A DNA stretch of 58,227 nt from an uncultured Lachnospiraceae bacterium (GCA_964472845.1 CAYYND010000001.1:5427-63653); one strand, 5' to 3'. Counted from the first letter of the stretch, positions 15,295 through 58,227 are shown. Numbers and translations are program-made. Notes: generated by a model from the sequence alone, not told the origin.

Positions 15295-16890
15295 TCAGTT
15301 AAAGTTACCCTCGAGCTTAGGCTGGAGTTTTTTGATAGCGCTTGTGATCGTGCTTGCGCTCAGTTTTGCGTCTCTGGTCCAGGAAGATGACTGATTGTTC
15401 TTAACGGCATTTCTGAAGGTTACCTGCTTGGATCCGAGATCCTTGTCGAATATACGACCGATATCGAACGAGAGGTTACCTCTGATGATGTCGAACATAT
15501 GAGCGGATACATCATCCTTGGAGTATCTGAGCTTATAGAGGGTCTCGAAGATAACGGGAGTGAGTGTTCTGTAAGAAGCGGAAGCGAGTGCTTCAAGAAC
15601 CGCGGCGCCCATCTCGATCGTTCCCTCAACCTTTGCGTAAACGGGAAGTCCGTAAAGTGTTATGGGGTTACCCATAATGGTTACGTAAGGTGTATTTTCA
15701 TCGTATGTTGGGCAAGGAAGGATGGAGTAAGATCCGGCAAGATCTTTGTTTGATTCAAAAACCTTGAAGGATACTCTTGCACGGTCTATGCAGAAGAGGA
15801 GCTTCTCATCTCTGAAGTTAGCCTGATGCCATACGTCGGATGTGTATATACCGTAATCTGTTTCGTGGAGAAGTGTATTGAGCTTTTCAAGTGTGTTCTT
15901 GATCTGCTCACTTGCAAATTTATCCGAAACCTTAAGATTTCCGCTTGAATCCTTTTCAACAAGGAGTGCGCCTGTTCCGTAGAACCAGGGGTCGGTGTGG
16001 ATTCCGCTCGTCATATAGCCGAATATATCGCTTTCGCCTTCCTTAGCGGCAGACTTTTCTCCGTTACCGTCTACATCTCTGTAAACGCTCTGGCAGTATT
16101 CTATAAATTTGTCGTATGTCCACTGACGGGATTCAACGAGTGTCTGGGGATGAGGCATATCTTTGTGGAATTCATCAAGCAGTTTGTCGTTGACAAAGCA
16201 TGTATACATCATATACAGCGCATTGGGGGAGATATCACCCGATGCAAAGTAGAGCTTTCCTTTTACGGTCGTCTCTTGAATAAGGCTGGAAGGCCACCAA
16301 GGTTTATCAAAATTTATGTGGCTGCAATCCTCGGAGTTGAGGTTGTAGAGATAGCCCCTTGTTGCACATACGGCGGTCGTACGGGAATAGCTTGCGATAG
16401 CATCATATGATCTTTCGCCGTTTACCGCTGCTTTTACCTTATCGGCAAATTCATCGACATAATCCGCATCACCGTTCTGGTATTGGAATTCGATCTTTAC
16501 GCCGAGACGTTCTTCAACTGTCTTTATACGGTTGTAAAGTGCTTTGAGCGTGATGTTGGAACTGTCATAATCTTCTTCAACGCCGAATTCGGGGTGTTCA
16601 ACATCTTTCCAAGCGAGGAAAGTGAATGTCTTGTCACCAAAGTCGAGGTTGTCGGGAAGATCGTCCAGAAGGTAACCGTCTTTATCGTGGTCTTCATCGG
16701 GCGTACTACTCGAATCGTCTCCACCGACTGAGCCGATGTCTGCGGGATCGTTCGTAGCTTCGGGACCTTTGGTCTGATTATCGGATTCATCGGGAGTCTC
16801 GGGATCCTTGACGCAGGCAACAAAGCACGAAAGCATCATGAGGGCTACGAGAGCCAAGCATAAAATTTTGGTAAATGTTTTCTTTGCCAT
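15295..16890 (-). CDS. extracellular solute-binding lipoprotein (ABC transporter family 1 SBP, large LipO-like type). No cognate permease genes are adjacent.
   Basis: Signal peptide with lipobox LSCFVAC, a Ser/Asp/Thr-rich linker, then about 470 aa with SBP-like composition. Confidence 0.65.
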   Translation of the reverse strand: MAKKTFTKILCLALVALMMLSCFVACVKDPETPDESDNQTKGPEATNDPADIGSVGGDDSSSTPDEDHDKDGYLLDDLPDNLDFGDKTFTFLAWKDVEHPEFGVEEDYDSSNITLKALYNRIKTVEERLGVKIEFQYQNGDADYVDEFADKVKAAVNGERSYDAIASYSRTTAVCATRGYLYNLNSEDCSHINFDKPWWPSSLIQETTVKGKLYFASGDISPNALYMMYTCFVNDKLLDEFHKDMPHPQTLVESRQWTYDKFIEYCQSVYRDVDGNGEKSAAKEGESDIFGYMTSGIHTDPWFYGTGALLVEKDSSGNLKVSDKFASEQIKNTLEKLNTLLHETDYGIYTSDVWHQANFRDEKLLFCIDRARVSFKVFESNKDLAGSYSILPCPTYDENTPYVTIMGNPITLYGLPVYAKVEGTIEMGAAVLEALASASYRTLTPVIFETLYKLRYSKDDVSAHMFDIIRGNLSFDIGRIFDKDLGSKQVTFRNAVKNNQSSSWTRDAKLSASTITSAIKKLQPKLEGNFN

Positions 16891-33436: not shown

Positions 33437-33465
33437 TTGACAAAATTGTGTTTGAATGGTATAAT
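33437..33465 (+). promoter_or_regulatory. consensus extended -10 sigma-A promoter of the CaCA genes
   Basis: ttgaca-N17-tataat with TGg immediately upstream of the -10. About 100-nt leader before the ATG at 33569. Confidence 0.7.
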
Positions 33466-33568
33466 TACAAGCAAATATGATCTATTTGTATATCTAACAG
33501 CTTTGCGTGGGGCTGTCTATTTGTTTTTGCCTTTCGCGCGGCTTTATTTTTTATCGGAGGTGTTTTTG

Positions 33569-34561
33569 ATGGAATATGTATTGCTTATCGTGGGCTTTGC
33601 ACTTTTGATCAAAGGAGCCGATCTGTTTGTCGACGGAAGCTCGGCTATTGCCAAGCTTTTAAAGGTGCCGTCGATCATTATAGGTCTTACCGTTGTTGCG
33701 CTCGGGACGAGCCTTCCCGAGGCTTCTATAAGCATCAATGCCGCGATCCTGGGGCAGAACAGCTTGGCACTCAGCAATGTTCTCGGCTCAAATATCCTTA
33801 ATCTTCTCGTCGTTCTGGGCGCAAGTGCGTTGCTTTGCCCCGTTCGTGCCGGCGACGGTGTCATAAAGAAGGAGATACCATACAATATTCTGATAACCGC
33901 GGTGCTGTTTGTGTGCCTTATTTGCGGTATGACGACAGACAGCGAAAACGTGTGGGCGGCTGTCGTAGGTCAAGAGTCTGCCTTTACGCTCGGACGCATC
34001 TGCGGAATTATTCTGCTTCTGCTTTTTGCTTTCTATCTCTTTATGCAGATAAAAGGCGCGCTCAAGGCAAGAGAGGCGAATCGTGATCTCGATGGTGCGG
34101 ACGACGGCAAGAAGATCTCGCTTTGGAAGTCATTGATATTTATCGTTATCGGTGCCGTTGCCATAATTTTCGGCGGCGATATCGTTGTTGACAGCGCATC
34201 AAAGATAGCCGAGACCCTGGGAATGAGCGAAACTCTGATCGGACTTACCATAGTTTCTATGGGAACATCTCTGCCCGAGCTCGTTACCTCGGTGGTTGCC
34301 GCAAGGAAGGGCGAGAGCGATCTCGCGCTCGGAAACGCTATCGGCTCATCAATATTCAATATCCTGTTTATTCTCGGTGCAAGCGCGGCAATATCTCCGA
34401 TCACGGTCGGAGTCTCGGCAATATACGATACGCTTATTCTGATAGTCTTTAGCCTGCTTACGTGGGTATTTGCCGCAACGAAAAAGAAGATCTCACGTAC
34501 CGAGGGTGGTATTATGCTTCTTGCATACGCCGCATATCTTGCGTATATCATTATAAGATAA
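33569..34561 (+). CDS. calcium/cation antiporter (CaCA family, YrbG-like), copy 1
   Basis: The two alpha-repeats GLTVVALGTSLPEA and GLTIVSMGTSLPELV are diagnostic. ATG behind ggaggtg. Confidence 0.88.
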   Translation: MEYVLLIVGFALLIKGADLFVDGSSAIAKLLKVPSIIIGLTVVALGTSLPEASISINAAILGQNSLALSNVLGSNILNLLVVLGASALLCPVRAGDGVIKKEIPYNILITAVLFVCLICGMTTDSENVWAAVVGQESAFTLGRICGIILLLLFAFYLFMQIKGALKAREANRDLDGADDGKKISLWKSLIFIVIGAVAIIFGGDIVVDSASKIAETLGMSETLIGLTIVSMGTSLPELVTSVVAARKGESDLALGNAIGSSIFNILFILGASAAISPITVGVSAIYDTLILIVFSLLTWVFAATKKKISRTEGGIMLLAYAAYLAYIIIR

Positions 34562-34621
34562 ATATATTTTAATGTTAAAACGAAAGGAAGCCTTTTGTAA
34601 TTAAGGCTTAAGGTGACAGCT

Positions 34622-35617
34622 ATGGAATATGTATGGTTGATCGTCGGCTTCGTGCTTCTGATCAAGGGAGCGGATTTCTTTGTTGACGGAAGCTCGGATA
34701 TAGCAAAATTTTTCAAGGTACCGTCGATAATCATAGGGCTGACGATAGTTGCCTTCGGCACGAGTATGCCCGAGGCGTCGGTCAGTATCAATGCCGCTAT
34801 CGCGGGCGCTAACGACATTGCCGTCAGCAATGTTCTCGGTTCAAATATTTTCAATCTTCTCGTCGTGCTCGGCGCGAGCGCTTTGCTTTGTCCCGTAAAG
34901 GTACATAGCGGCTCGGTAAAAAAAGAATTTCCTTTCTCGATACTTATCACCGTCGTGCTCGCAGTGCTTTTGGCTGTCGGATATACCGCGGTAACTCCCG
35001 TCGGTTCTGAGACGAGTATATTTGACAACATCGCAAGCGGCAATGCGGCATTCGTGCTTGGACGTATCGGCGGAATAGTGCTTTTGGCACTGTTTGCATT
35101 CTATATGTTCTGGCAGATCAGAGATGCGCTTAAGGCAAGACAAGAGGATAACGCCACGGAGCAAGAGCATATATCTATCGTCAAGGCGATAATAATGATA
35201 GTGGGCGGCGCGGTCGCTATCATATTCGGCGGAAATCTCGTCGTAGACAGCGCAAAAACCATCGCTTCAAATTTCGGTATGAGTGACACCTTGATCGGAC
35301 TTACGATAGTTGCTATCGGAACCTCGCTTCCCGAGCTCGTTACCTCAATGGTAGCCGCTCGCAAGGGAGAGAGCGACATCGCACTCGGCAACGTAATAGG
35401 CTCGAACATATTCAACATCATATTCATTTTGGGTATAAGCTCAGCTATTTTGCCCATCACGGTGGATATCCTCGCCTTATACGATACGCTCATACTTATT
35501 GCCGTAAGCATCGTGTGCCTCATCTTTGCAAGAACTAAGCATAAGGTGTCGCGCATCGAGGGACTTATAATGGTTCTTATGTACGTTGCTTATTCCGCAT
35601 ACATAATCATAAGATGA
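34622..35617 (+). CDS. calcium/cation antiporter (CaCA family), copy 2 (tandem paralog)
   Basis: GLTIVAFGTSMPEA and GLTIVAIGTSLPELV. The N-terminal ~120 aa are highly similar by eye to copy 1. Confidence 0.88.
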   Translation: MEYVWLIVGFVLLIKGADFFVDGSSDIAKFFKVPSIIIGLTIVAFGTSMPEASVSINAAIAGANDIAVSNVLGSNIFNLLVVLGASALLCPVKVHSGSVKKEFPFSILITVVLAVLLAVGYTAVTPVGSETSIFDNIASGNAAFVLGRIGGIVLLALFAFYMFWQIRDALKARQEDNATEQEHISIVKAIIMIVGGAVAIIFGGNLVVDSAKTIASNFGMSDTLIGLTIVAIGTSLPELVTSMVAARKGESDIALGNVIGSNIFNIIFILGISSAILPITVDILALYDTLILIAVSIVCLIFARTKHKVSRIEGLIMVLMYVAYSAYIIIR

Positions 35618-35645
35618 TCCGCTTACTTTAACAGATGAAATATTA

Positions 35646-35683
35646 ACGCCGCACGGTCAGTTTAAGATCCGTGCGGCGTTTTT
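35646..35683 (+). terminator. rho-independent terminator between the convergent CaCA-2 and ECF S-component genes
   Basis: acgccgcacgg ... ccgtgcggcgt stem followed by tttt. Confidence 0.8.
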
Positions 35684-35703
35684 GTATGAAAGCTTTGAAT
35701 ATC

Positions 35704-36399
35704 TCATACCCCGTATTTTATTTTGATCCTTTGAAGTTTATCTCCAAACGGCTTTGAAAGGCAGAGCAAAAACAGGAAATTTGAGACCGTATAAAGTGCC
35801 GTATGAGGCAGTGCGGTTATTATTGCCGAAAGATACAGAGCCGTGTCAAACCCGTCGTTATACCACAGTACCGTCCATACATCCATTATTAACGAGAAGG
35901 CGATCCCCGAAAGGACACCGAATATCAACAAAAACAGCTTGCTTTTTTTCAGCGGTTTTGCGAGCGCTCCGGCGGCAAGCCCGATAAGCCCCCAGGAAAG
36001 CATCTGAAACGGAGTCCAAGGTCCTTGCCTGAAATAAAAATTCGATATAAGCGCCGAAAAAGCTCCCACGGCAAATCCCGCTTCGCCACCGAGATATATG
36101 GCGGTTATCACGGTCAGCGCCGTTACGGGCTTGAAAAACGGTATGAAGCGTCCCGCGACGGATAATGCGGTCATAATCGAAACTATAACTGTCCTTCGTG
36201 TTCCGATCTCTTTCTTTTCAAATCCGATCACAAACAGGATGATCGTAAGAATGGCTATAAAGAGCGACACAAAAAGATGCTTTTTTTCGTCGAAAACGAG
36301 AGTGCCCATAACTGCCGCAGAGGGGATCATTATAAGCGGTACAAGTATTTTAAGGGCTTTTCGGACACCGTGGCTCTTAATTACCGTCATTGCCGTCAT
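35704..36399 (-). CDS. ECF transporter S component (substrate-binding integral membrane protein). I cannot assign the family by eye.
   Basis: 231 aa with about 6 TM segments. It is the last gene of the ECF module and overlaps the ATPase gene by 23 nt. Confidence 0.6.
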   Translation of the reverse strand: MTAMTVIKSHGVRKALKILVPLIMIPSAAVMGTLVFDEKKHLFVSLFIAILTIILFVIGFEKKEIGTRRTVIVSIMTALSVAGRFIPFFKPVTALTVITAIYLGGEAGFAVGAFSALISNFYFRQGPWTPFQMLSWGLIGLAAGALAKPLKKSKLFLLIFGVLSGIAFSLIMDVWTVLWYNDGFDTALYLSAIITALPHTALYTVSNFLFLLCLSKPFGDKLQRIKIKYGV

Positions 36400-38020
36400 C
36401 GCCTCGCTTTCTCGGACCGTTTTCTCTGCAAAGCTTTGCTATATCCTCCACCGTTACCGCATTTTCAAAATGTCCTTTTGCAATACGTGCCGCGGATGTA
36501 GTATAGAAGCAGTTTGCCGAGAAGAACTCGCGCGGAGTACCGCAGGAAACGGTATTGCCGCGGAAGAAGAGGGCACATCTGTCAGCGCAAGACGCGGCAA
36601 ATTCCACATCGTGAGTTACCGCGAGTACCGTCACACCGTCAGCCTTAAGCTTTCGGAGTATGTCTGTAAGAGCTCTCTTCTTTTCCGAATCAAGCCCCTT
36701 TGTCGGCTCGTCCAAGAGCAACAGCCGGGGGCTCGTTGCAAGCACTTTGGCGAGAGCCAGAAGCTGTTGCTCTCCGCCCGAAAGATCGTATGGATGCTTT
36801 TCGAGTAGATGTGAGAGCTCGAAGGGAAGTGAGCTTGCGTCCGCGTGCGCGTCTTCAAGCTCCTCTCGGACGGAGTTGCAAAGAAACACATTCTGCACAT
36901 CCTGCGGAAGCAGTGCAAGACAATTTCGGTACAGCGACTGTCCCGTGTATTCCTTGAGTCGCTTTCCCAATACGCGAATCTGACCGCTGTATATTTTTCG
37001 TATACCCGATGCACAGGAAAGTGCCGTCGTTTTGCCTGAGCCGTTTCCGCCGAGGATGCAGAATATCTCACCCTCGTATATAGTGAGATCCAATCCCTTC
37101 AGCACGTCGGGCGCGTTTTTTTCGTAACGAAAATATACATTTTTGAATTCGAGTGCCGTGCTTTCACTGTGCACATAGGGGGGGCACGGTAGGCTTGCGA
37201 TATGGTTTGAATATTCTGTCTCGATAAATCTTCTGCCCTCGCCTACCGTCAGCGGACATTCAGCTCTTGATCCGAGCAAGCGATACAGCCTTGCCGCCGT
37301 CGGCATAGCAGCAAGGAGCGGACTGCTATCCGATAAGCTTGATATAACATTGCGAGGCTTGCCGTCACCGATGAGGGCTCCGCCGTCCATTACGAGCAGT
37401 CGGTCGCACATGGGGATAAGCTCCTCGAGACGGTGCTCTGCAATGATAACGGTCAGCGAAAGATCACGGTTGAGCTTTTTTACCGTGCTTAAAAAATCCG
37501 AGGTCGCGATAGGGTCGAGCTGAGAGGTCGGCTCGTCAAGAATAAGGATATCCGGATCCATCACCATAACGGCGGCGAGATTTAAAAGCTGTTTTTGACC
37601 GCCCGATAGCGTTGAAACGTCGCGCTCGAACCAATCTTCAATGCCGAAGTATGATGCCATCTCGGCAACTCTGCGAGCTATCACGGCTTGAGGCAGCCCG
37701 AGATTTTCGAGTCCGAAGGCAAGCTCAGAATATACTCTGTCGGTCACTATCTGTTCATCGGGTCGCTGTGCGACGAATCCTATACGCTCGGCGGGTATCT
37801 CATTTATTGGTCTTCCGCCGAAAAGTATCTCGCCTTTTTCGCTTCCGCTCGGCGCGATCTCTCGCTTCAAAAGTCTTAGGAGCGTGGATTTTCCGCTTCC
37901 CGTTGCACCGCATAAAACGGTAAATTCTCCCGACGCGACGGAAAAGGAAACATCGTGAACGGCGGCTCGCTCGCACATAGGATATGTGAAACTCAGATCC
38001 TTGACTGTAAGTATTTCCAT
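36377..38020 (-). CDS. ECF transporter fused ATPase (EcfA-EcfA', CbiO-like duplicated ABC domains)
   Basis: Walker A GATGSGKST and GGNGSGKTT. Signatures LSGGQKQ and LSGGEQQ. I chose the ATG at 38020, behind ggagga. Confidence 0.88.
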   Translation of the reverse strand: MEILTVKDLSFTYPMCERAAVHDVSFSVASGEFTVLCGATGSGKSTLLRLLKREIAPSGSEKGEILFGGRPINEIPAERIGFVAQRPDEQIVTDRVYSELAFGLENLGLPQAVIARRVAEMASYFGIEDWFERDVSTLSGGQKQLLNLAAVMVMDPDILILDEPTSQLDPIATSDFLSTVKKLNRDLSLTVIIAEHRLEELIPMCDRLLVMDGGALIGDGKPRNVISSLSDSSPLLAAMPTAARLYRLLGSRAECPLTVGEGRRFIETEYSNHIASLPCPPYVHSESTALEFKNVYFRYEKNAPDVLKGLDLTIYEGEIFCILGGNGSGKTTALSCASGIRKIYSGQIRVLGKRLKEYTGQSLYRNCLALLPQDVQNVFLCNSVREELEDAHADASSLPFELSHLLEKHPYDLSGGEQQLLALAKVLATSPRLLLLDEPTKGLDSEKKRALTDILRKLKADGVTVLAVTHDVEFAASCADRCALFFRGNTVSCGTPREFFSANCFYTTSAARIAKGHFENAVTVEDIAKLCRENGPRKRGDDGNDGN

Positions 38021-38871
38021 TTTAGTCTTTCCTCCGTTTCTGTTATGGTTGGGAGTATTGCGAGAATTCCGTACGCCGCGTATGCTGTTATAGAGAGCGG
38101 CGTCGGATCGGCAGATCTGATGCTCGGATAAAATGTGAAATCGAGCGCACCGAGTGCCATTCCGAGAACTGTCAACGCTGTGCACGAAATGATAATGCCG
38201 AGCATCAGTCCGTCGCAAAGATGAAATCCGAATATCGAATAATATGTCCTTTTGTGTTTTCCGTATGCACGTGCCGCCATACTGTCAGCGGTCGTGATAC
38301 CGTTTTCGAGTGCCCACGTGATAAGAATGGAAAACACGCGAAGGTCGCTTTTTATTTTATCGATCACATTTTCGTCCTTATAGAGCCCGATGGCTCTCTG
38401 GCTTTCGGATATTCGGCGCGCTCTTTCTCCAAAGAGCGGCACATACCTGAGTGCCATTGAAAGGACGAGGGAGAGCCTCGGCGAGAGCTTGCCGAAAACA
38501 TAAAGAAGTTTGTCCCTTGTCATAAGGCTGCTGAATGACCGGAATAGATACAACACCGTTACGATGATGCCTGCATTGACGGCGCCGTAAACGGTCGCCT
38601 CAAGCGTTACGGGGGAATCGTTTATAACAAACAGTACTGTTTTACCGTTGTGAGAGGTTAGCGGATTTATTACTGTCAGAGCCGCGAACAGGGCAAGGTA
38701 AAACATATGGGACGAGAGCGTGTTTCCTTTGTCTCGCAGTAAGAAATACGCAAGCGCTCCTATGCCTCCGATAAGGAGAAGTATGGGATTCTGCGAGAAC
38801 ATCAGAACCAACGTCATCGCAAGAAAATATACAGTTATAACAATTGGATTGCAGTCCTCGAGCCGTCGCAT
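37993..38871 (-). CDS. ecfT: ECF transporter transmembrane (T) component, CbiQ/EcfT family
   Basis: Polytopic. C-terminal coupling-helix motifs ALRYVP...SQRAIG...SMAARAYG. It overlaps the ATPase gene by 28 nt. Confidence 0.8.
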   Translation of the reverse strand: MRRLEDCNPIVITVYFLAMTLVLMFSQNPILLLIGGIGALAYFLLRDKGNTLSSHMFYLALFAALTVINPLTSHNGKTVLFVINDSPVTLEATVYGAVNAGIIVTVLYLFRSFSSLMTRDKLLYVFGKLSPRLSLVLSMALRYVPLFGERARRISESQRAIGLYKDENVIDKIKSDLRVFSILITWALENGITTADSMAARAYGKHKRTYYSIFGFHLCDGLMLGIIISCTALTVLGMALGALDFTFYPSIRSADPTPLSITAYAAYGILAILPTITETEERLKWKYLQSRI

Positions 38872-38909
38872 ATTCTTCTCCTTTCTCTTTTCTGTCGTAA
38901 TTCAGCCGA

Positions 38910-40652
38910 TCATTTCAGATCTTCACCGAGCGCGCAGGTGTACAGCCACTCGATCCTGTCGCCGTCCTTGAGGATATATTCTCCTGCGCCGACGGACGGA
39001 CATTCTCCGTTTACGTAGTACATCCATCCCGAAAGATCTCCGTATTCCGTCTCATAAATGTAAGCGATCCCGGAAATGTACACATAGGTCGCATCTCCGT
39101 CATTTTCAAGCTGTATCTTGTGCTTGCGCGCGGCTTCTGTCAGGACGGTGTATACCGTGTCGCCGTCAGCGATCTCAAATTCGGTGGTATCAAGTATTGT
39201 TCCGTCCTCTGGAATGTGATCGGCACGTCCCGCGACGGTGTCGCATCTGATGGTCAGCGTCACCGTGCCCACAGCGTTTTCCTTTGACGCGCTGTCGCCG
39301 TTGTAATATTCATCAGCCGAGCGTATCTCTATCGAGCAGACGATCAAAAGCGCGATCGCTGTGACGATCAGAACGGCAATGAAATTCTTTATATTACGCT
39401 TTTTTAATGCAAACAGAAGGACAGATACAGCACCGCCAATACAAACGATGATAAGACAGGCTAATGGTTTGTACCCGTGCTCCGAATTGTCGTTTCCGCT
39501 GTCGGTGTCGGTCGGAACGCTCTCGGAACCTTGCGAGGGGGAAATGGGCGTTGTGTCAAGCGATGGATCCTTTTCGGTATCCGAGGGCGAGCGTGTGTCG
39601 GTGATGAGATCATCGTTCGATTCGGTCTTATTCGTGCTCTCGGGGTCAAAGTCCGTATCGATATCGGTGTCGAGTCCCGTGTCGATGCCGTCTGAGAATC
39701 TCGAATCAAGCAGATATAGGGAAGGTCTGCCGCCCGTCATACGCAGATATGATACCGCGGCGCAGAGGACTTGGACCGTTGCCGTTGCGTTGGAAGCACC
39801 GCCCACCTTGTGGCAAAAGCTTCCGTCGGGAAGTCTGTATTTGGCTATTCCGTCGAAAAGCGTGTCGCCGTTTTTGATAAATCTGTCATCCTTTGATGCG
39901 TCGATGCCGAGTGATGACAACGCTATTATTACCTGCGCAGTGCTTTCGGGATTTGCCGAGCCGTAGCCGGCAAAGTCGCCGTCGTCAAGCTGACATTCCG
40001 ACAAAAGGCTCAGCGCATTGTCTATCGCAGATCTGACGTCACTGTCGGAGGAATAAAAGGGCGCGAGTGCCTGTACCGCCATGGCGGTAGCATCAACGTC
40101 ACTGTACTGACCCATAACAGCCCAGCCGCCATCATTTAATCGGAGATCAAGAAGCTTTGCCTTGACCTGCTCCGCCGTATATTTTCCGCCGCTGTAACCG
40201 TTGTTTAAAAGGTGCAGGCCGAATATCCAGCTCATAAGCCCTTGTTCTCCGACGGAATTTTCGAGCGTTGCCGAAATATAGCCGTCGTCGTCGCCCGATG
40301 CCGCAAGGCAGAGCGCATATTTCAGCCTTGATGACGCAGAGTACACCTTGTTGCTTTTTATGTAGGAAAGAAGCGCCGATCTGTATGATGAGAGATCGTA
40401 TTTTTTGTACTGCGCGAGGGAAATAATATACCACTCTGCGGATGTGCCCGCGTTTTTTGTCAGGTATCCGTCTATCCAGGCTTGAACCCCGTCAGCGCTC
40501 GATACGCCTTGATAAGCCAAGATACCGTCGATAAGGTCCTGTGCCTCAACGACGGTATTTTCGGTTGGCTTTTCTGCGTAGCACGGTATCGCTCCGAGCA
40601 ACAGTACGGCAGTAACTAACAGTATTGCCGCCGCAGAAAATTTAGATCTCAT
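38910..40652 (-). CDS. Membrane-tethered surface protein. From N to C: signal peptide, alpha/alpha-toroid (prenyltransferase/terpene-cyclase-like repeats), acidic linker, two TM helices, and a C-terminal DUF4430 (transcobalamin-like beta) domain.
   Basis: Signal peptide ...GAIPCYA. Repeats LNDGGWAV, QLDDGDFAG and RLPDGSFCH. D/T/S-rich linker at aa ~315-392. TM helices at aa ~396-416 and ~423-442, separated by KKRNIKN. The C-terminal GWMYYVNGECPSVGAGEYILKDGDRIEWLY is the DUF4430 signature. Confidence 0.7.
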   Translation of the reverse strand: MRSKFSAAAILLVTAVLLLGAIPCYAEKPTENTVVEAQDLIDGILAYQGVSSADGVQAWIDGYLTKNAGTSAEWYIISLAQYKKYDLSSYRSALLSYIKSNKVYSASSRLKYALCLAASGDDDGYISATLENSVGEQGLMSWIFGLHLLNNGYSGGKYTAEQVKAKLLDLRLNDGGWAVMGQYSDVDATAMAVQALAPFYSSDSDVRSAIDNALSLLSECQLDDGDFAGYGSANPESTAQVIIALSSLGIDASKDDRFIKNGDTLFDGIAKYRLPDGSFCHKVGGASNATATVQVLCAAVSYLRMTGGRPSLYLLDSRFSDGIDTGLDTDIDTDFDPESTNKTESNDDLITDTRSPSDTEKDPSLDTTPISPSQGSESVPTDTDSGNDNSEHGYKPLACLIIVCIGGAVSVLLFALKKRNIKNFIAVLIVTAIALLIVCSIEIRSADEYYNGDSASKENAVGTVTLTIRCDTVAGRADHIPEDGTILDTTEFEIADGDTVYTVLTEAARKHKIQLENDGDATYVYISGIAYIYETEYGDLSGWMYYVNGECPSVGAGEYILKDGDRIEWLYTCALGEDLK

Positions 40653-41454
40653 AACGCTTTTTTGCCGTTAAAGCCAGAGCAAGCGCTCCGCAGAGAGATA
40701 CTGCAAAGAGAACGATGTAAACGAGCGAGTCGTCACCTGTTAAGGGATTTTCAACAACTTTTACTGTAACTGCGGGGGGGACCAGTGTTTGAGTTGCGCT
40801 TGTGGCACTGATAATGAAAGAACCTACGTTATCAATTTTTACCGTGACCTTTCCGTCCTTGTCGGTCTTGAATTCCGTTGCAACACCGTTGACGGTGATG
40901 ACGGCATCCTTTACGGGATCACTAAACTGATTATAGTTTTCATCGAACTTTGCCGCATTGAGCGTCAGAGTGAGCTCGCCGTTCTTTTCGACTTGTGCCG
41001 TGTTGACGTCAAAATAGCAATATGTATCGCTCCAGCTCGAAAGGTCTGTATATATGAAGGCGTTGATAAAGTCGCCGCCCTTTACCTCGTCGTCAAGTCC
41101 CATAGCCATAAGGTTATTGACATAGTAGCCGTATGAACCGCCGTTTGCGACACCCCAGAGCTTTGCAAGAGACATTCCCCACGACCCGGCTGAGGCTTCA
41201 TATCCTGCCGATGCGCCGCCCTCAAACTTTGCTTCGTGAGCACAGTACAGAGCATCGTTTATCGTCAGCTTGGAATCGCCGTCGATATCTGTTATGTTGA
41301 TCTTTTCCTGTGAGAGCACGAGCTTGCCTTTATCGTCGGAGATAGTTACGTAAACATCTGCGGACGAAGAAGTACTGCTCTCTGCGAATACGCCGAGTGT
41401 AAGCGTACTCAAAAGGACTAAGACTGCCAATGTTATAGATAAGATCTTTTTCAT
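40642..41454 (-). CDS. Cell-wall-anchored DUF4430-like protein with an NPLTG sorting signal
   Basis: Signal peptide MKKILSITLAVLVLLSTLTLGVFA. SYGYYVNN...VKGGDFINAFIY is DUF4430-like. A beta-rich second domain follows. The C-terminal NPLTG, hydrophobic stretch and KKRYEI tail form a sortase signal. I chose the ATG at 41454. Confidence 0.65.
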   Translation of the reverse strand: MKKILSITLAVLVLLSTLTLGVFAESSTSSSADVYVTISDDKGKLVLSQEKINITDIDGDSKLTINDALYCAHEAKFEGGASAGYEASAGSWGMSLAKLWGVANGGSYGYYVNNLMAMGLDDEVKGGDFINAFIYTDLSSWSDTYCYFDVNTAQVEKNGELTLTLNAAKFDENYNQFSDPVKDAVITVNGVATEFKTDKDGKVTVKIDNVGSFIISATSATQTLVPPAVTVKVVENPLTGDDSLVYIVLFAVSLCGALALALTAKKRYEI

Positions 41455-41504
41455 TTTTATACCTCTTTTTGTTATGATTATATTTTTTGATCTGCTTTCG
41501 CCGA

Positions 41505-41834
41505 TCAAATATTCGGCTTTAATGATGAGTATGCTTGAGAAGAGCCGTTCGCCTCTTTCTTTGCTTGAACTTCGGCGTTTTTGCGTGCGGCAAGACGGGC
41601 ACGTTTGGCTCTTGCTCTCTTTTCTCTGTTTCTTTGGCGGCGGTCATCGTTTCTCGGCGGTTTTATGCCGGCGGCTTCAAGCGCGCGAGGCCATGGACCG
41701 AGAAAAGCTTTTATTGCTACGACTTCAGCCTCATCGAAATCGGCTCTTTGCGGATAACGGCTCTCCACAAGCTCGGTGTATTTGATACGCAGAAGGCGAA
41801 TACACTCCTCTTTGCTGTATTTTTTTTGATCCAT
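41505..41834 (-). CDS. Small protein with a very basic C-terminal tail. Function unknown. It is the first ORF after the riboswitch.
   Basis: 109 aa. SD ggagg lies 7 nt upstream. The tail is RNDDRRQRNREKRARAKRARLAARK. Confidence 0.55.
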   Translation of the reverse strand: MDQKKYSKEECIRLLRIKYTELVESRYPQRADFDEAEVVAIKAFLGPWPRALEAAGIKPPRNDDRRQRNREKRARAKRARLAARKNAEVQAKKEANGSSQAYSSLKPNI

Positions 41835-41852
41835 ACGATACCTCCGAAATAC

Positions 41853-41888
41853 AAAAAACGCTTTCCTACCTCAAACGGTAAAAAAGCG
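41853..41888 (-). terminator. Candidate intrinsic terminator (riboswitch expression platform) just upstream of the SD of the 109-aa ORF
   Basis: Minus strand reads cgcttt-ttt-tacc-gtttga-ggta-gg-aaagcg followed by tttttt. The stem is weak and interrupted. Confidence 0.35.
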
Positions 41889-41999
41889 CAGCTATCCTAT
41901 CGGTCGAAAAATGGGCATACTTCACCCATATACCAACGAAAACGGCTACGCTCTTCAAGTCCAAAAACGATCGTGCAAATGCACATTACCTATCGCTGT

Positions 42000-42105
42000 C
42001 TTGGCGAGTATTCCGACTTATGAGACCTGCGTCTCAATTACGGTAATGACGGTTGCGACGGATTTTCACCGAACTTCCCTCTGATCTGCACAAAGCAGAG
42101 CCAAG
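42000..42105 (-). promoter_or_regulatory. Cobalamin riboswitch aptamer (short type without a large peripheral extension)
   Basis: Minus strand reads cttggc...agagggaagttcggtgaaaatccgtcgcaaccgtcattaccgtaa-ttgagacgcaggtctca-taagtcggaatactcgccaag. The AGGGAA..GGTGAAAATCC core, the ACCGTAA element, a short hairpin, a B12-box-like AAGTCGGAATACTCGCC, and a closing cttggc/gccaag P1 are all present. Confidence 0.75.
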
Positions 42106-42170
42106 CTGCGAAAAATATTTAATTTTCATACGTGCTGAGCAAAACGCAAAGCAAGCTTCATCAAGACAGT

Positions 42171-42199
42171 ATTATATCACCTTTTCATACGATTGTCAA
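42171..42199 (-). promoter_or_regulatory. Consensus extended -10 sigma-A promoter driving the riboswitch and operon
   Basis: Minus strand reads ttgaca-N17-tataat, preceded by TGa. Confidence 0.7.
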
Positions 42200-42309
42200 G
42201 CCGTTGATCCAACAGATTTTGATCCTGAAATTGATATTGAAAGTCTTAACTAAAGCGAGGTGCACGGCATATACTCTTAACAGAAATACGCCAAAAGGAG
42301 GCAAAAACG

Positions 42310-42531
42310 ATGCAATTCGACCGCGAAGCGATAGATAAGCTTCTTTCACTTAACGATTTTCAACTTAAAATAGTGGTAACAAGACTTCTCAAGGAAAACG
42401 GCATAGACCCGTCAATGCTAAACATCGACACTAAAAATATGGCGGCACTCAGAAGAACACTTCAAAATGCAACAGAGGCGGACATCGAAAGAGCCGCACA
42501 ACTGCTCTCGAAGCTCAAAGGAGGACAGTGA
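42310..42531 (+). CDS. hypothetical protein (73 aa, helical)
   Basis: Strong SD aaaggagg upstream. No recognisable motif. Confidence 0.5.
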   Translation: MQFDREAIDKLLSLNDFQLKIVVTRLLKENGIDPSMLNIDTKNMAALRRTLQNATEADIERAAQLLSKLKGGQ

Positions 42532-42576
42532 AAACTTAAATATACTTAAATATAAACGGAAAGGGGAGGGTATACC

Positions 42577-43176
42577 GTGGCACAGGGAGAAAACAGAGTC
42601 GGATCGGACGATGCCAACTCTGCATTGAGCAAGCTTTTAAGCGATCCCGAAGCACTCAGATCGATCGCTACGCTCGCGGGGGCTTTCGGCAAGAGCACGG
42701 GCGGTGAGAGCTACGCATCAAAAACGCAAAGTGCGTCGCAGAGCGGCGGCGAGGTCAAAGGATTTAAAATTCCCGACGGATTGTTTGACGATCTGCCCGA
42801 GGGTCCGCAGGACAATGAAAGCCCAGATAACGATCATAATGATCATAATACCGAGAACGGAGACGACATTCGCGCCGAGGCCGGCTCGGCATCGGTCGGA
42901 GGCGGCGGAGATATTCTCGGATCTCTGATATCTCCCGAAATGCTTCTGAAGCTTCCCGAGGTGATCGCGGCGGCAGGACCTTTGATGCAGTCCTTCGGAC
43001 GTCTGAGGGAGGACAGCGCAAAAGGCGGAAAAGCATTTCACCGCGGACGTGTTCCGACAGAAAAAAGATGCGCCTTGCTCGCGGCGATGAAGCCATATCT
43101 CAGCGAGCACAGATGTAATACTGTGGATATGATGATAAGCCTTAGCAAATTCTCATCGATCTTTGAACGCAAATAA
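42577..43176 (+). CDS. hypothetical protein (199 aa, with an acidic low-complexity centre)
   Basis: GTG start behind ggggagg. Co-directional and closely spaced with its neighbours. Confidence 0.5.
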   Translation: MAQGENRVGSDDANSALSKLLSDPEALRSIATLAGAFGKSTGGESYASKTQSASQSGGEVKGFKIPDGLFDDLPEGPQDNESPDNDHNDHNTENGDDIRAEAGSASVGGGGDILGSLISPEMLLKLPEVIAAAGPLMQSFGRLREDSAKGGKAFHRGRVPTEKRCALLAAMKPYLSEHRCNTVDMMISLSKFSSIFERK

Positions 43177-43194
43177 GCTGAGAAAGGAGAATAT

Positions 43195-43611
43195 ATGTAT
43201 TCACGAATAGGACGCAGAGAGATACCATCAACAGATCGCAACATAAACATTCCCGAAAATTACAGCGGCTCTGCATTTAACGGCGGACTTATCGGAGATC
43301 TTTCCGAAAAGCTCCCCGAGGATGTATCTGCAACGTCAAACGCAGATGCGTCAGCGGATATAACGGAACGGATTAAATCGGACGCGCGAGGGGAGGGCAC
43401 CGAGCAGAGCGGAGCGGTATGCGAATGTGACCCGTACACGCGCGCCGCCGTGTCTTGCTCCTTGCCCGGGCATATGGCTGTCGGTACAAAGGAGTCGCGC
43501 ATACTGCCGTTTGATAACGACCAACTGCTGATACTCGGTCTGATACTTTTACTTAACAACGGAACGCTTGACGAGGACATACTCGTCCTCCTTATATTAC
43601 TGCTTCTGTGA
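43195..43611 (+). CDS. hypothetical protein (138 aa) with a Leu-rich hydrophobic C-terminus
   Basis: SD aaaggag. The C-terminal LLILGLILLLNNGTLDEDILVLLILLLL may be a membrane anchor. Confidence 0.5.
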   Translation: MYSRIGRREIPSTDRNINIPENYSGSAFNGGLIGDLSEKLPEDVSATSNADASADITERIKSDARGEGTEQSGAVCECDPYTRAAVSCSLPGHMAVGTKESRILPFDNDQLLILGLILLLNNGTLDEDILVLLILLLL

Positions 43612-43665: not shown

Positions 43666-43736
43666 GAACCTTTATGATAAAATCATATCTGAAAAAATAC
43701 ATAACATCAAAGTTAAAAAGAAAGGAACTGAAAAGT

Positions 43737-44069
43737 ATGATAAAAAAGACGGGTGGCTTTGAAAAAAGCCTTGAAAATGAAAGCCTTGTGATAAAAATAC
43801 GGGGCGAGATAGACCATCACAGCGCGGTGGACATACGTGGAGACATAGATCGGCTGATATATGAGCTCTCTCCGCGAAGGCTCGTGATGGATCTTTCCGT
43901 AGTGGATTTTATGGACAGCTCCGGGCTGGGGCTCATTATGGGAAGGTATTCGGTTATGTCGGTGCTCGGTGGCGAAACGGTGCTGCGCGATCCCGCACCG
44001 TCAATACTTAAGATCATCAAGCTTGCGGGGCTTGAGAGAATGATAAAGATCGAAAAAAGCAAGAAATAA
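43737..44069 (+). CDS. spoIIAA: anti-sigma F factor antagonist SpoIIAA (STAS domain)
   Basis: LVIKIRGEIDHHSA...VDFMDSSGLGLI (phosphorylatable Ser in DSSG). It precedes spoIIAB-sigF. Confidence 0.88.
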   Translation: MIKKTGGFEKSLENESLVIKIRGEIDHHSAVDIRGDIDRLIYELSPRRLVMDLSVVDFMDSSGLGLIMGRYSVMSVLGGETVLRDPAPSILKIIKLAGLERMIKIEKSKK

Positions 44070-44096
44070 GCCGTGCAACAGAAAGGAAGGCAAAAT

Positions 44097-44573
44097 ATGA
44101 AAAAAAACACTGTAAAAAGAGATATGACCGTGCTTAACAGAGTAAAGCTCGTTATTCCATCGCTGTCCGTAAATGAAGGCTTTGCCCGTGCGGCAGTGGC
44201 GGCATTCTGCGCTCAGATAAATCCTTGCGCCGCTGAGCTTGCGGACATAAAATGTGCGGTCTCCGAGGCGGTCACGAACTGTATCGTTCACGCATATAAA
44301 AATACCCCGGAGGGAATGGGAAACATTACACTGACCGTAAAGCTTTGCGCCGACAGAGTGGTTATTGTCGAGATAAAGGACAGCGGTTGCGGAATCCCCG
44401 ATGTAAAAATGGCAAGGACGCCGCTTTTTACCACAGATGCAGCGGACGAGCGTAGCGGAATGGGATTTACGGTCATGGAAAGCTTTATGGACAGGCTTAG
44501 GGTAAGCTCCAAGGTCGGACGCGGAACCAAGGTCACAATGTACAAGTACCTGAAGGATCAGGAGAGCCTCTGA
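44097..44573 (+). CDS. spoIIAB: anti-sigma F factor SpoIIAB (serine kinase)
   Basis: VSEAVTNCIVHAY (N box) and DSGCGI...ERSGMGFTVM (G boxes). Confidence 0.9.
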   Translation: MKKNTVKRDMTVLNRVKLVIPSLSVNEGFARAAVAAFCAQINPCAAELADIKCAVSEAVTNCIVHAYKNTPEGMGNITLTVKLCADRVVIVEIKDSGCGIPDVKMARTPLFTTDAADERSGMGFTVMESFMDRLRVSSKVGRGTKVTMYKYLKDQESL

Positions 44574-44608
44574 ATACATAACAAGATCCTTATCAGGGAG
44601 GGGAAAAC

Positions 44609-45466
44609 GTGAGCTATTGTGAAAATGAAGTGCACGATCTCGGAGAATATCAAAACAGTGATGCTTGCTTGGAAGCGGAAGAGAGCGGCGTGGCAAAAGA
44701 GACTTCTGCCAAGGATATCGGCAGAGTACGGGATGCAAGTCCGCTTTATGCTAAGAATACCGAGCTCGTAAGACGTGCCGCTGAGGGGGATGAAAAAGCA
44801 CTTGAGGAGCTGGTAATTTCAAATATGGGGCTTGTGCGAAGTATCGCGCGTAAGTTTATTGATCGCGGCACGGACTATGAAGATCTTGTTCAGATAGGTA
44901 TTATGGGGATGCTTAAGGCGGCTGAAAGCTTTGACATTACCAGAGGGACGGTATTTTCAACCTATGCCGTACCTTTGATCGTGGGTGAGATACGCAGGCA
45001 TCTGCGCGATGACGGAATGATAAAGGTCAGCAGACAGTACAAGCGGCTCGGTATGGCGCTCAGCCGTGAGCGGAACCGTATATTAACCGAGGAGGGGCGA
45101 GAACCGCGCATAGAGGAGCTTGCGGCACTCTGCGGCTCGACTCCCGAGGAATGTGCTATGGCGCTTGAGGCGATATCTCCCGTTTCTTCTTTTTCGGACA
45201 CGGTGGGGGGAGACGAGAGTATGACGCTTGAAAGCACACTTGCCGACGCTGACAGCGAGGCGGAGATCGAGCGTATAAACGACCGCCTTGCGCTTAATCA
45301 GGCTATATCCAAAATGCAACCGACATGGAGAAAGATCGTGCTCTTGCGGTATTACAGAGGAAAGACTCAGCAGGAGACGGCGGATCTGCTCGGACTTTCA
45401 CAGGTCAAAGTATCGAGAGAGGAAAAGAAAATTATGGAGTTTTTGCGAGGGGAGCTCGTTGTATAG
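44609..45466 (+). CDS. sigF: RNA polymerase sporulation sigma factor SigF
   Basis: Region 2 is DLVQIGIMGMLKAAESFD...FSTYAVPLIVGEIRRHLRDDGMIKVSR. Region 4 is QQETADLLGLSQVKVSREEKKI. GTG start behind ggagggg. Confidence 0.88.
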   Translation: MSYCENEVHDLGEYQNSDACLEAEESGVAKETSAKDIGRVRDASPLYAKNTELVRRAAEGDEKALEELVISNMGLVRSIARKFIDRGTDYEDLVQIGIMGMLKAAESFDITRGTVFSTYAVPLIVGEIRRHLRDDGMIKVSRQYKRLGMALSRERNRILTEEGREPRIEELAALCGSTPEECAMALEAISPVSSFSDTVGGDESMTLESTLADADSEAEIERINDRLALNQAISKMQPTWRKIVLLRYYRGKTQQETADLLGLSQVKVSREEKKIMEFLRGELVV

Positions 45467-56751: not shown

Positions 56752-56878
56752 CTACACATATAATGAACGAATCGCTGATAATTTTTGCACAAATTATACA
56801 AAAATCGACACTTTGTTATATAAAAAGGCAAAGACCGCAAAAAACGCCGATCAGTACGAAAGGAGATGCCGATAAAAA

Positions 56879-58227
56879 ATGACGGACGGGAAAAATAATA
56901 TGAATCGGGAGCTTGCGCCGTACTATTTTCATCAAGGCACAAATTATTTTGCGTGGGAATATCTCGGGGTTCATTTTAGACCCGAGGGCTATACTTTCAG
57001 GGTATGGGCACCGGATGCCGACGGCGTTTTTTTGGTCGGCGATTTTAACGGGTGGAAGAGAGATCTGCCTATGAAGCGCGTAACGGAGCAGGGAGTTTTT
57101 GAGATATTCTGCGACAAGGAAAGTGTTAGCGCGGGGCAAAATTATAAATATTTGATACTTAACGGTGAAAAAGAGTTCTATAAAGCCGATCCGTATGCTT
57201 TTTTTGCGGAGCGTCCGCCGAATACGGCTTCCGTCGTTTACGATATAAATGCGGTAGAGAAGTACGGCTGGCACGATGCGGGTTGGCTTGAGTACCGAAA
57301 AAAGACCTTCGGAAACGGAACGACGGCTTATCCTCTGAATATCTACGAGATCCATACGCTTTCGTGGAAGCGTGACGAAAACGGTTCTCCGCTTCAGTGG
57401 CGACGGCTTGCCGAGGAACTTGCCGCTTATGTAAAGCAGATGGGATATACGCATATCGAGCTTATGCCGATAGCAGAATTCCCGTACGAGGGTTCATGGG
57501 GATATCAAGTGACGGGCTACTATGCACCTACCTCAAGGCTTGGCTCGCCGGAGGATCTGTGCGCCTTTGTGGATACGCTTCACGGTGCGGGCGTGGGAAT
57601 AATCCTTGATTGGGTCCCTGCGCATTTTCCGAAGGATGAGTACGGGCTCTTCGAATTCGACGGAAGCCCTCTCTATGAGTATCAAGGCTTCGACAGAATG
57701 GAGCACGAGGGATGGGGAACGAGACGTTTTGACGTCGGGCGCGAAGAGGTACAGAGCTTTCTTATCTCGAACGCTACCTTTTGGATAAAAAACTATCATA
57801 TCGACGGTATACGGGTAGATGCCGTCGCATCTATGCTCTACCTTGACTACGATAAGCGTCCCGGCGAGTGGATCCCGAATGTTTACGGGGACAACAGATG
57901 CCTTGAGGCTATCGCGTTCTTTAAGAAGCTGAATGCTCATATAAACGGAATGTATCCCGATGTTATAATGATAGCCGAGGAATCCACCGCCTTTGCACAT
58001 ATTACCGGGTCGGAGCACGGCGGGCTCGGATTTACCTACAAATGGAATATGGGCTGGATGAATGATATGCTTTTTTATGCGGAGAAGGATCATATATTCA
58101 GAAAATATCATCACGAAAAACTTACGTTTGCATTGACATACGCTTTTGAGGAAAATTATATATTGCCTATATCTCACGATGAGGTCGTGCACGGCAAAAA
58201 ATCTCTTATAGACAGGATGCCGGGGGA
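56879..58227 (+). CDS. glgB: 1,4-alpha-glucan branching enzyme, 5' partial (runs off the window)
   Basis: My own translation reads ...YFHQGTNYFAWEYLGVHF...FRVWAPDADGVFLVGDFNGW...HIELMPIAEFPYEGSWGYQ...DWVPAHFPKD...GIRVDAVASMLY...IAEESTAF...ISHDEVVHGK, which are GH13 branching-enzyme motifs. The start is ATG 56879 (behind aaggag, long spacing) or the in-frame ATG 56900. This ORF is absent from the supplied track because it has no stop in the window. Confidence 0.9.
   Translation, partial: MTDGKNNMNRELAPYYFHQGTNYFAWEYLGVHFRPEGYTFRVWAPDADGVFLVGDFNGWKRDLPMKRVTEQGVFEIFCDKESVSAGQNYKYLILNGEKEFYKADPYAFFAERPPNTASVVYDINAVEKYGWHDAGWLEYRKKTFGNGTTAYPLNIYEIHTLSWKRDENGSPLQWRRLAEELAAYVKQMGYTHIELMPIAEFPYEGSWGYQVTGYYAPTSRLGSPEDLCAFVDTLHGAGVGIILDWVPAHFPKDEYGLFEFDGSPLYEYQGFDRMEHEGWGTRRFDVGREEVQSFLISNATFWIKNYHIDGIRVDAVASMLYLDYDKRPGEWIPNVYGDNRCLEAIAFFKKLNAHINGMYPDVIMIAEESTAFAHITGSEHGGLGFTYKWNMGWMNDMLFYAEKDHIFRKYHHEKLTFALTYAFEENYILPISHDEVVHGKKSLIDRMPG

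Follow-up and report, generated by a model that had tools for sequence, protein, structure and literature searches.

In a 58,227-nt stretch of DNA from an uncultured Lachnospiraceae bacterium (GCA_964472845.1, CAYYND010000001.1:5427-63653; the whole stretch is called the window below, and positions count from its first nucleotide), a promoter, a cobalamin riboswitch, a terminator and six co-directional genes (g1 to g6) follow one another on the minus strand from 42199 to 35704, and we consider it probable (about three chances in four) that this operon imports corrinoids with the involvement of the surface proteins that it encodes. Corrinoid uptake is well supported because the riboswitch, a substrate-binding (S) component resembling CbrT, the fold of the surface protein g3 and the co-occurrence of these parts across related loci all point to it; that the surface proteins bind corrinoids, that they hand them to the energy-coupling factor (ECF) transporter and that vitamin B12 represses the whole are steps that we infer. 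The exact TTGACA-N17-TATAAT promoter proposed in a first-pass annotation of this DNA is present (sigma-70 type, 42171-42199, minus strand): it matches the consensus at 12 of 12 positions, carries a TG extension as well and was the sole perfect site found by a promoter scan of 35000-43000. Open reading frame (ORF) and gene calls bore out the six co-directional genes of that annotation and their overlaps of 11 nt (g2/g3), 28 nt (g4/g5) and 23 nt (g5/g6), the last shrinking to 14 nt if the S component is taken from its 228-amino acid (aa) database start. Independent gene calls on identical metagenomic contigs (g3, 580 aa; g4, 292 aa; g5, 547 aa; g6, 228 aa) match the window. The computational checks suggested in that annotation all turned out in its favor, with PF14478 present in one of the two surface proteins.

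The leader ahead of g1 contains a compact cobalamin riboswitch aptamer (41986-42119, minus strand), identified by RF00174, covariation and folding, in which a 6-bp hairpin takes the place of the usual P6 extension. Its expression platform is an intrinsic terminator (41848-41889, minus strand; 13-pair stem and U-run, seen in a terminator scan and in the minimum-free-energy fold), with the hairpin at 41889-41858 and a T-run after it, 14 nt ahead of the GGAGG of the ribosome-binding site and of the g1 ATG at 41834. Cobalamin riboswitches turn genes off upon ligand binding. The Rfam match to RF00174 (42119-41986, minus strand) scores 33.7 bits (E = 7e-5), the gathering score being 31.5, and agrees with the riboswitch core recognized in the first pass. 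Because this score is marginal, and because the close, near-identical orthologous leaders of two related loci (L009 and L021; L numbers denote related loci throughout) score below the Rfam gathering score, the structure was tested directly by covariation. Seventeen leaders of the window's subtype were aligned, and 27 pairs in six helices were mapped from the Rfam alignment together with the local 6-bp hairpin. Standard pairs filled 84% of cells, compared with 35-54% when the partners were slid by 1-3 columns, changes on both sides (compensatory) occurred in 15 of the 27 pairs, and none of 500 shuffles reached any of the observed pairing measures. Most of the covariation sits in P1, P2 and the P6 hairpin, and the near-invariant core consists of GGGAAG..CGGUGAAAAUCC and the B12 box AAGUCGGAAUAC. 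Folding the leader to minimum free energy gave the aptamer helices and the terminator again (z = -3.0). An earlier RNAalifold run on a mixed alignment of 40 leaders was uninformative (5 pairs) because it mixed two riboswitch subtypes, and it was replaced by the subtype-specific alignment. Its sequence and conserved pairing place the leader firmly in the cobalamin riboswitch clan (CL00101) as a compact form, with an aptamer intermediate between RF00174, the classic type, and RF01689, the short one. For orthologous leaders, RF00174 gives 32-93 bits or else RF01689 gives 38-44 bits. The RF01689 leaders belong to a Ruminococcus flavefaciens clade (L019, L023, L030, L038, L046, L052 and L070, at about 5790-5970) with an even shorter aptamer of the RF01689 (AdoCbl-II) type at 38-44 bits; in these loci a conserved ACGUUUUUGGACAAUGAAAAACGU hairpin follows the aptamer and g1 is absent.

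The last three genes encode a dedicated (group I) ECF module together with its S component, as the first-pass annotation had it. g4 (37993-38871, minus strand; 292 aa by gene call) encodes EcfT, a T component of the CbiQ family (PF02361, 40.8 bits), and g5 (36377-38020, minus strand; 547 aa, starting with MEILTV at 38020) encodes a fused EcfA-EcfA' ATPase with two ABC domains, ABC_tran (PF00005) matching over two stretches and TIGR04520 scoring 323 bits against a cut-off of 315. The S component encoded by g6 (35704-36399, minus strand; the database form begins at 36390 and has 228 aa) matches PF07155 and PF12822 and is CbrT-like. In a single-sequence search of the PDB its sole match was 6FNP chain A (E = 1.7e-4), the S component CbrT in the crystal structure of the Lactobacillus delbrueckii ECF-CbrT complex (Santos et al. 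2018, PMC5997447). A profile built from 25 g6 orthologues raised this match to E = 1.8e-13, spanning residues 7-177 of the 182 in that chain, and among other solved S components the best was 4HZU_S (E = 3.6e-3); g6 has about 60 more residues than CbrT at its N terminus. By these comparisons g6 is homologous to CbrT along almost the full length of the latter, and better so than to other solved S components. ECF-CbrT takes up both cobalamin and cobinamide unaided by accessory proteins (PMC5997447), and the original prediction of CbrT goes back to Rodionov et al. 2009, as told by Santos et al. 2018 (PMC5997447). The family name of g4 might suggest instead a transporter of cobalt or another metal, to which the surface proteins would be functionally unrelated, and several NCBIfam cobalt-ATPase models do match g5, below their cut-offs. 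Such a transporter was rejected, and we hold it to be extremely improbable: neither CbiM nor CbiN is encoded, the CbiQ equivalog model TIGR02454 gives 22 bits against a cut-off of 112, and the CbrT-like S component falls in PF07155 and PF12822, which are families of the vitamin type.

The product of g3 (38910-40652, minus strand; 580 aa) has the domain order of transcobalamin. Transcobalamin clamps B12 between a toroid and a beta domain, and g3 comprises a signal peptide, an alpha/alpha toroid (residues 33-306), a disordered linker (320-391), a transmembrane hairpin and a beta-rich domain (462-575), as delimited by Pfam, AlphaFold2 and Foldseek. PF14478 (DUF4430) matches residues 497-572 with 70.4 bits against a gathering score of 23.8, and residues 140-290 give weak squalene-cyclase and prenyltransferase matches. 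In the AlphaFold2 model (36 homologues; mean predicted local distance difference test score [pLDDT] of 76, with most of the toroid above 85) the two membrane helices span residues 394-415 and 421-440 and are joined by KKRNIKN. This two-helix hairpin is inserted between the two domains, so that with the basic loop inside the cell the toroid and the beta domain would both face outward. The toroid, hairpin and DUF4430 domain read from the sequence in the first pass are thus all found in g3, by Pfam or in the model. A Foldseek search of the PDB with the whole chain returned intrinsic factor, transcobalamin or haptocorrin in each of the top 12 places (E = 2e-6 to 4e-5), with alignments of 570-600 columns that span both domains, so the nearest folds are those of the mammalian carriers; terpene cyclases and prenyltransferases rank after them. 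The toroid was also considered as a class II terpene cyclase enzyme, and this was rejected on account of an incomplete DxDD motif (the third Asp is lost) and the extracellular position of the domain, the similarity itself being real. At 40085-40102 (minus strand; residues 185-190) it aligns with the catalytic DxDDTA of squalene-hopene cyclase, reading D185-V-D187-A-T-A in g3 and D185-x-D187-(A/V)-T189-A190 in the family, the residues D187, T189 and A190 being invariant. An extracellular toroid that is presumably non-catalytic therefore keeps two of the three catalytic aspartates.

The second surface protein is g2 (40642-41454, minus strand), whose most likely start at 41454 gives a product of 270 aa that is identical to P0121. 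From model, Foldseek and alignment it comprises a signal peptide, a putative beta-grasp N-terminal domain, an immunoglobulin (Ig)/prealbumin-like domain and, at the C terminus, NPLTGD, a hydrophobic helix and KKRYEI. The model (pLDDT 90) shows an N-terminal domain beginning beta-beta-alpha-beta, the Ig/prealbumin-like domain, which is matched by CarboxypepD_reg in 30 of 36 relatives, and a C-terminal helix. Foldseek matches to g2 are mostly Ig domains aligned with the second domain, and the beta domain of human transcobalamin (5no0) ranks seventh; the N-terminal domain aligns with 5no0 at E = 3e-4, with a target TM-score of 0.63, a root-mean-square deviation of 3.9 over 109 columns and 23% identity. 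The N-terminal domain of g2 may thus resemble the transcobalamin beta domain, by predicted fold and not by sequence, and a sequence search of the PDB with g2 gave no match. NPLTGD is followed by 23 hydrophobic residues and KKRYEI, and the family consensus is SPxTGD; PF00746 is weakly matched by 8 of the 36 relatives (best E = 6e-4) and does not match the window's g2 at E<=1. This C terminus is a candidate for either a clostridial-type sorting signal or a plain C-terminal membrane anchor. The first-pass description of g2 as DUF4430-like and sortase-anchored is accordingly plausible but only partly shown: the predicted fold and the sorting-like C terminus agree with it, but PF00746 is weak and PF14478, found in g3, is missing from g2 and its relatives. 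An invariant D-x-D-x-D-(G/S) loop lies in g2 at about residues 56-60 of the 270-aa form (41272-41286, minus strand), where it reads DIDGDS; it resembles an EF-hand or dockerin-type calcium site, and four of the 36 relatives give weak EF-hand_1 matches.

To establish how far these parts belong together, 80 related loci were fetched and compared for synteny, and riboswitches were sought with nhmmer profiles built from Rfam-validated seeds (same strand, no more than 900 nt ahead of the first gene of the operon; counted over the 77 loci with at least 250 nt of upstream sequence). The families are large (more than 1,180 members for g3, more than 1,070 for g2 and about 4,270 for the S component) and nearly all their members are from metagenome bins of Clostridia (Oscillospiraceae, Ruminococcus and Lachnospiraceae). 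With one genome scanned per species, at least 484 species genomes had a g3 relative, and g3 relatives occur in the cultured R. flavefaciens strains FD-1, SAb67, MA2007, Y1, YL228 and YAD2003. The gene order (g1)-g2-g3-g4-g5-g6 was found in 55 of the 80 loci and the order (g1)-g4-(g5)-g6-g2-g3 in 11 (among them L068, in which no g5 was detected), so that 66 of 80 have one of the two main orders. Five loci carry g2-g3 alone with no transporter genes nearby (L012, L044, L073, L075 and L041), three carry g3 directly followed by an S gene and no ECF module, and the remaining loci are on truncated contigs or are without g2. A cobalamin riboswitch lies upstream in 67 of the 77 loci, and a single extra match was found elsewhere in about 1 Mb; when nhmmer-positive loci were rescanned with Rfam, 23 of 29 reached the gathering score, with RF00174 scoring up to 93 bits, as did none of the 10 negative loci. 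Given this synteny and these riboswitch counts, the link among surface proteins, ECF genes and B12 sensing is strong, and it survives rearrangement of the operon. The three minimal units of g3 with a CbrT-like S gene (L049, 3958-6515; L056, 1313-3801; L067, 6938-9515) have neither g2 nor a riboswitch, and a divergently oriented stretch upstream is highly conserved between L049 and L056.

The same survey bears on whether the surface proteins take part in transport at all. The CbrT-like ECF transporter might import corrinoids alone, as the L. delbrueckii complex does with B12 and cobinamide (PMC5997447), and g2 and g3 would then hoard or sequester corrinoids at the surface, be it to compete for them or to store them, take B12 from carriers of the host or of other microbes, or fill some co-regulated role in the wall. 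The g2-g3 pair can be deployed separately, as the five loci lacking nearby transporter genes indicate, and since a riboswitch precedes three of these lone pairs (L012, L044 and L073, with none at L075 and L041), the pair can be B12-regulated on its own. We nevertheless regard this explanation as unlikely: g2 and g3 share an operon with the ECF and S genes in 66 of the 80 loci and in two orders, g3 stands right beside a lone S gene in three loci, and the predicted hairpin would set g3 in the membrane of the transporter.

Several observations weigh against corrinoid import assisted by the surface proteins. The Rfam score of the window's leader is marginal, as noted above, and neither nhmmer nor Rfam detected a riboswitch in 10 of the 77 loci, in which fuzzy motif searches gave nothing convincing and short leaders lie behind ordinary promoters. 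For g3, the Foldseek TM-scores are low, at 0.35-0.49 on the target, since the model sets the two domains in a different arrangement; PF01122 does not match at E<=0.01, and the g3 family profile reaches no transcobalamin or intrinsic factor chain in the PDB at E<=10 but matches squalene-hopene and terpene cyclases (E = 2e-6 to 7e-5). With the domain order and PF14478 present, and with PF01122 and the profile matches lacking, g3 has the architecture and the beta domain of transcobalamin but falls outside the eukaryotic family by sequence. For g2, PF14478 gave no match to the window protein or to 36 family members even at E<=1, and hhalign gave a probability of 1% for its N-terminal domain against the C-terminal domain of g3; together with the PDB sequence search, these results rule out g2 as a DUF4430 protein at the sequence level, and the fold match alone remains. 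The larger ORFs in the remainder of the window include no B12-dependent genes, no cob/cbi genes of B12 biosynthesis and nothing that shows a need of the organism for B12. Finally, the literature searched contained no report of B12 binding or transport by these accessory proteins, and the sole wet-lab study concerns heme. In that study, Lactobacillus sakei deleted for the five-gene cluster lsa1836-1840, an ECF-like operon with the same parts list, was reported to be impaired in accumulating heme, and to recover on complementation (bioRxiv 10.1101/864751). By this precedent the substrate of the window's operon could be heme or another tetrapyrrole. We think that very unlikely here, since a cobalamin riboswitch precedes the operon in the window and in 67 of the 77 loci, since the S component is nearest to CbrT when its profile is compared with solved S components, and since gating of heme import by B12 is not expected.

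If the operon does import corrinoids, its parts suggest how this might proceed. The operon would serve B12-repressed corrinoid scavenging in its host, a spore-forming bacterium of the class Clostridia. In a B12-replete cell, ligand bound to the aptamer would favor the terminator and keep the operon off; with B12 scarce, the operon would be read through, and g2, in or on the wall, would make the first contact with a corrinoid. g3, tethered by its hairpin beside the transporter at the membrane surface, could then clamp the corrinoid between toroid and beta domain and pass it to the CbrT-like S component, after which EcfT and EcfA-A' would power import by ATP hydrolysis. That three loci contain g3 and an S gene only suggests a direct partnership of g3 with the S component. 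The specific order of the relay, from g2 to g3 to the S component, seems to us roughly half as probable as corrinoid import with these proteins as such. More doubtful than not, and offered tentatively, is the full picture of a wall-to-membrane corrinoid relay through g2 and g3, in which a bacterial transcobalamin counterpart, tethered to the membrane, would dock on an S component of the CbrT type and a small nucleic-acid-binding protein, g1, would be placed under control of the same riboswitch.

The g1 product (41505-41834, minus strand) is a 109-aa cytoplasmic protein, with no signal peptide, that contains one HNH_repeat motif (PF18780, 28.2 bits against a cut-off of 26) and a tail rich in K and R. 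The first-pass label of a basic protein is correct but incomplete, as it omitted this motif. g1 occurs in 28 related loci (e.g., L001, 5807-6109; L003, 2694-2987; L013, 1081-1329; plus 25 others), always as the first gene after the riboswitch and in both operon orders, and is characterized by the invariant motif IKAFLGPWPRALEAAG(I/L)K followed by a variable basic tail. A database-wide search gave 400 cluster representatives, for the most part 70-130 aa long with a single repeat, along with large proteins that have 5-18 repeats; a comparison of g1 with PHROGs gave no match. g1 may bind nucleic acids, and if the full picture given above is true it would carry B12 regulation beyond the operon.

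At the 3' end, a GC-rich hairpin (35646-35683; 12-bp stem, 11-12-nt loop) separates the operon from a convergent CaCA gene. The hairpin is real, but the strong terminator that the first pass took to be shared is not equally strong in both directions: the clean T-run is on the plus-strand side and serves the convergent Na/Ca-exchanger gene, and the tail on the operon strand is AAUAUUU. It is thus a clear terminator for the plus strand and a weaker one for the operon. Two tandem paralogous Na/Ca-exchanger genes (PF01699) occupy 33437-35617 (plus strand) and converge on the 3' end of the operon. On the other side, between the operon promoter and spoIIAA-spoIIAB-sigF (43674-45466), ORFs of 73, 199 and 138 aa without a Pfam match lie at 42310-43611 (plus strand), the 199-aa one being acidic and of low complexity. 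Elsewhere in the window, one 531-aa ORF and two of about 215 aa (15295-16890 and 56816-58192, both minus strand) have no Pfam match at E<=1e-5. Two related loci have further RNA elements downstream of the operon, namely a Clostridiales-1 small RNA directly after the S gene of L026 (11929-12095; RF01699, 137.7 bits) and a second RF00174 riboswitch in L022 (13105-13304; 57.7 bits), which presumably controls another B12-related gene.

Acquisition of corrinoids by Gram-positive gut and rumen anaerobes has been listed as an open problem (PMC6593275). The known surface capture proteins, BtuG and BtuH, are from Bacteroidetes. The operon family is a testable candidate for the missing Gram-positive capture system and for B12 competition with the host, as well as for the source from which transcobalamin and intrinsic factor evolved. 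If true, the relay would be the Gram-positive equivalent of BtuG/BtuH-BtuB and a living model of the origin in bacteria that was proposed for animal B12 carriers in 2007. The idea is 19 years old, and the value of the locus lies in well-defined parts and cultured hosts for a first biochemical test.

The statement in the first-pass annotation that no experimentally characterised system with such an architecture was known did not hold, as the concept was predicted by Burroughs, Balaji, Iyer and Aravind in 2007 (PMC1796856) and the L. sakei operon has been studied experimentally, with heme (bioRxiv 10.1101/864751). In the portions of the 2007 paper drawn on here, bacterial SLBB proteins of the transcobalamin clade are described with signal peptides, Gram-positive anchors and fusions to alpha/alpha toroids, with paralogous extracellular partners in the same operon, CbiO/CbiQ-like neighbors and hosts that lack B12 synthesis, and scavenging of B12 or its precursors is predicted (PMC1796856). 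As far as described there, those operons share with the window a toroid with a transcobalamin-type beta-grasp domain, anchors, a second extracellular partner and CbiO/CbiQ-like genes; the same portions make no mention of a membrane hairpin, riboswitch control, a CbrT-like S component, a cryptic beta domain as in g2, or g1 (PMC1796856). The corrinoid-capture inference therefore essentially re-derives that of Burroughs et al. 2007, and the concept is not new; what is new here is the scale of the family, its linkage to riboswitches and the three riboswitch subtypes, the membrane hairpin, the sequence-cryptic domain of g2, the affinity of the S component to CbrT and the conserved g1.

Mammalian transcobalamin, intrinsic factor and haptocorrin have, like g3, a toroid followed by a DUF4430 beta domain in one chain, but they are soluble, with a short linker and no membrane hairpin, whereas the toroid of g3 is nearer to terpene cyclases by sequence. 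At the level of logic, the proposed relay resembles BtuG/BtuH-BtuB and the Staphylococcus Isd system, the latter a heme relay, in that surface proteins of high affinity capture a scarce cofactor of the tetrapyrrole type and pass it to a membrane transporter. The folds are unrelated (BtuG is a beta-propeller; Ig-like and NEAT domains occur in these systems), and cell envelopes and transporters differ, BtuB being TonB-dependent and the other a binding-protein-dependent ABC transporter. BtuH is a surface B12-binding lipoprotein of Bacteroides that feeds BtuB (PMC8941943). L. sakei lsa1836-1840 by its published description comprises an S component, a fused A-A', a T component and exported proteins like the alpha and beta parts of transcobalamin; compared by that description alone, it differs from the window's operon in that the alpha-like and beta-like parts are separate proteins and the reported substrate is heme (bioRxiv 10.1101/864751). 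The L. delbrueckii ECF-CbrT complex (PDB 6FNP, PMC5997447) shares with the window an S component, EcfT and two ABC ATPase domains. There, however, a group II module is shared by several S components, whereas the module of the window is dedicated, lies in the operon and has fused ATPases, its S component has the N-terminal extension of about 60 residues, and two exported transcobalamin-like proteins and an HNH_repeat protein are co-transcribed with it, with a riboswitch over the whole operon.

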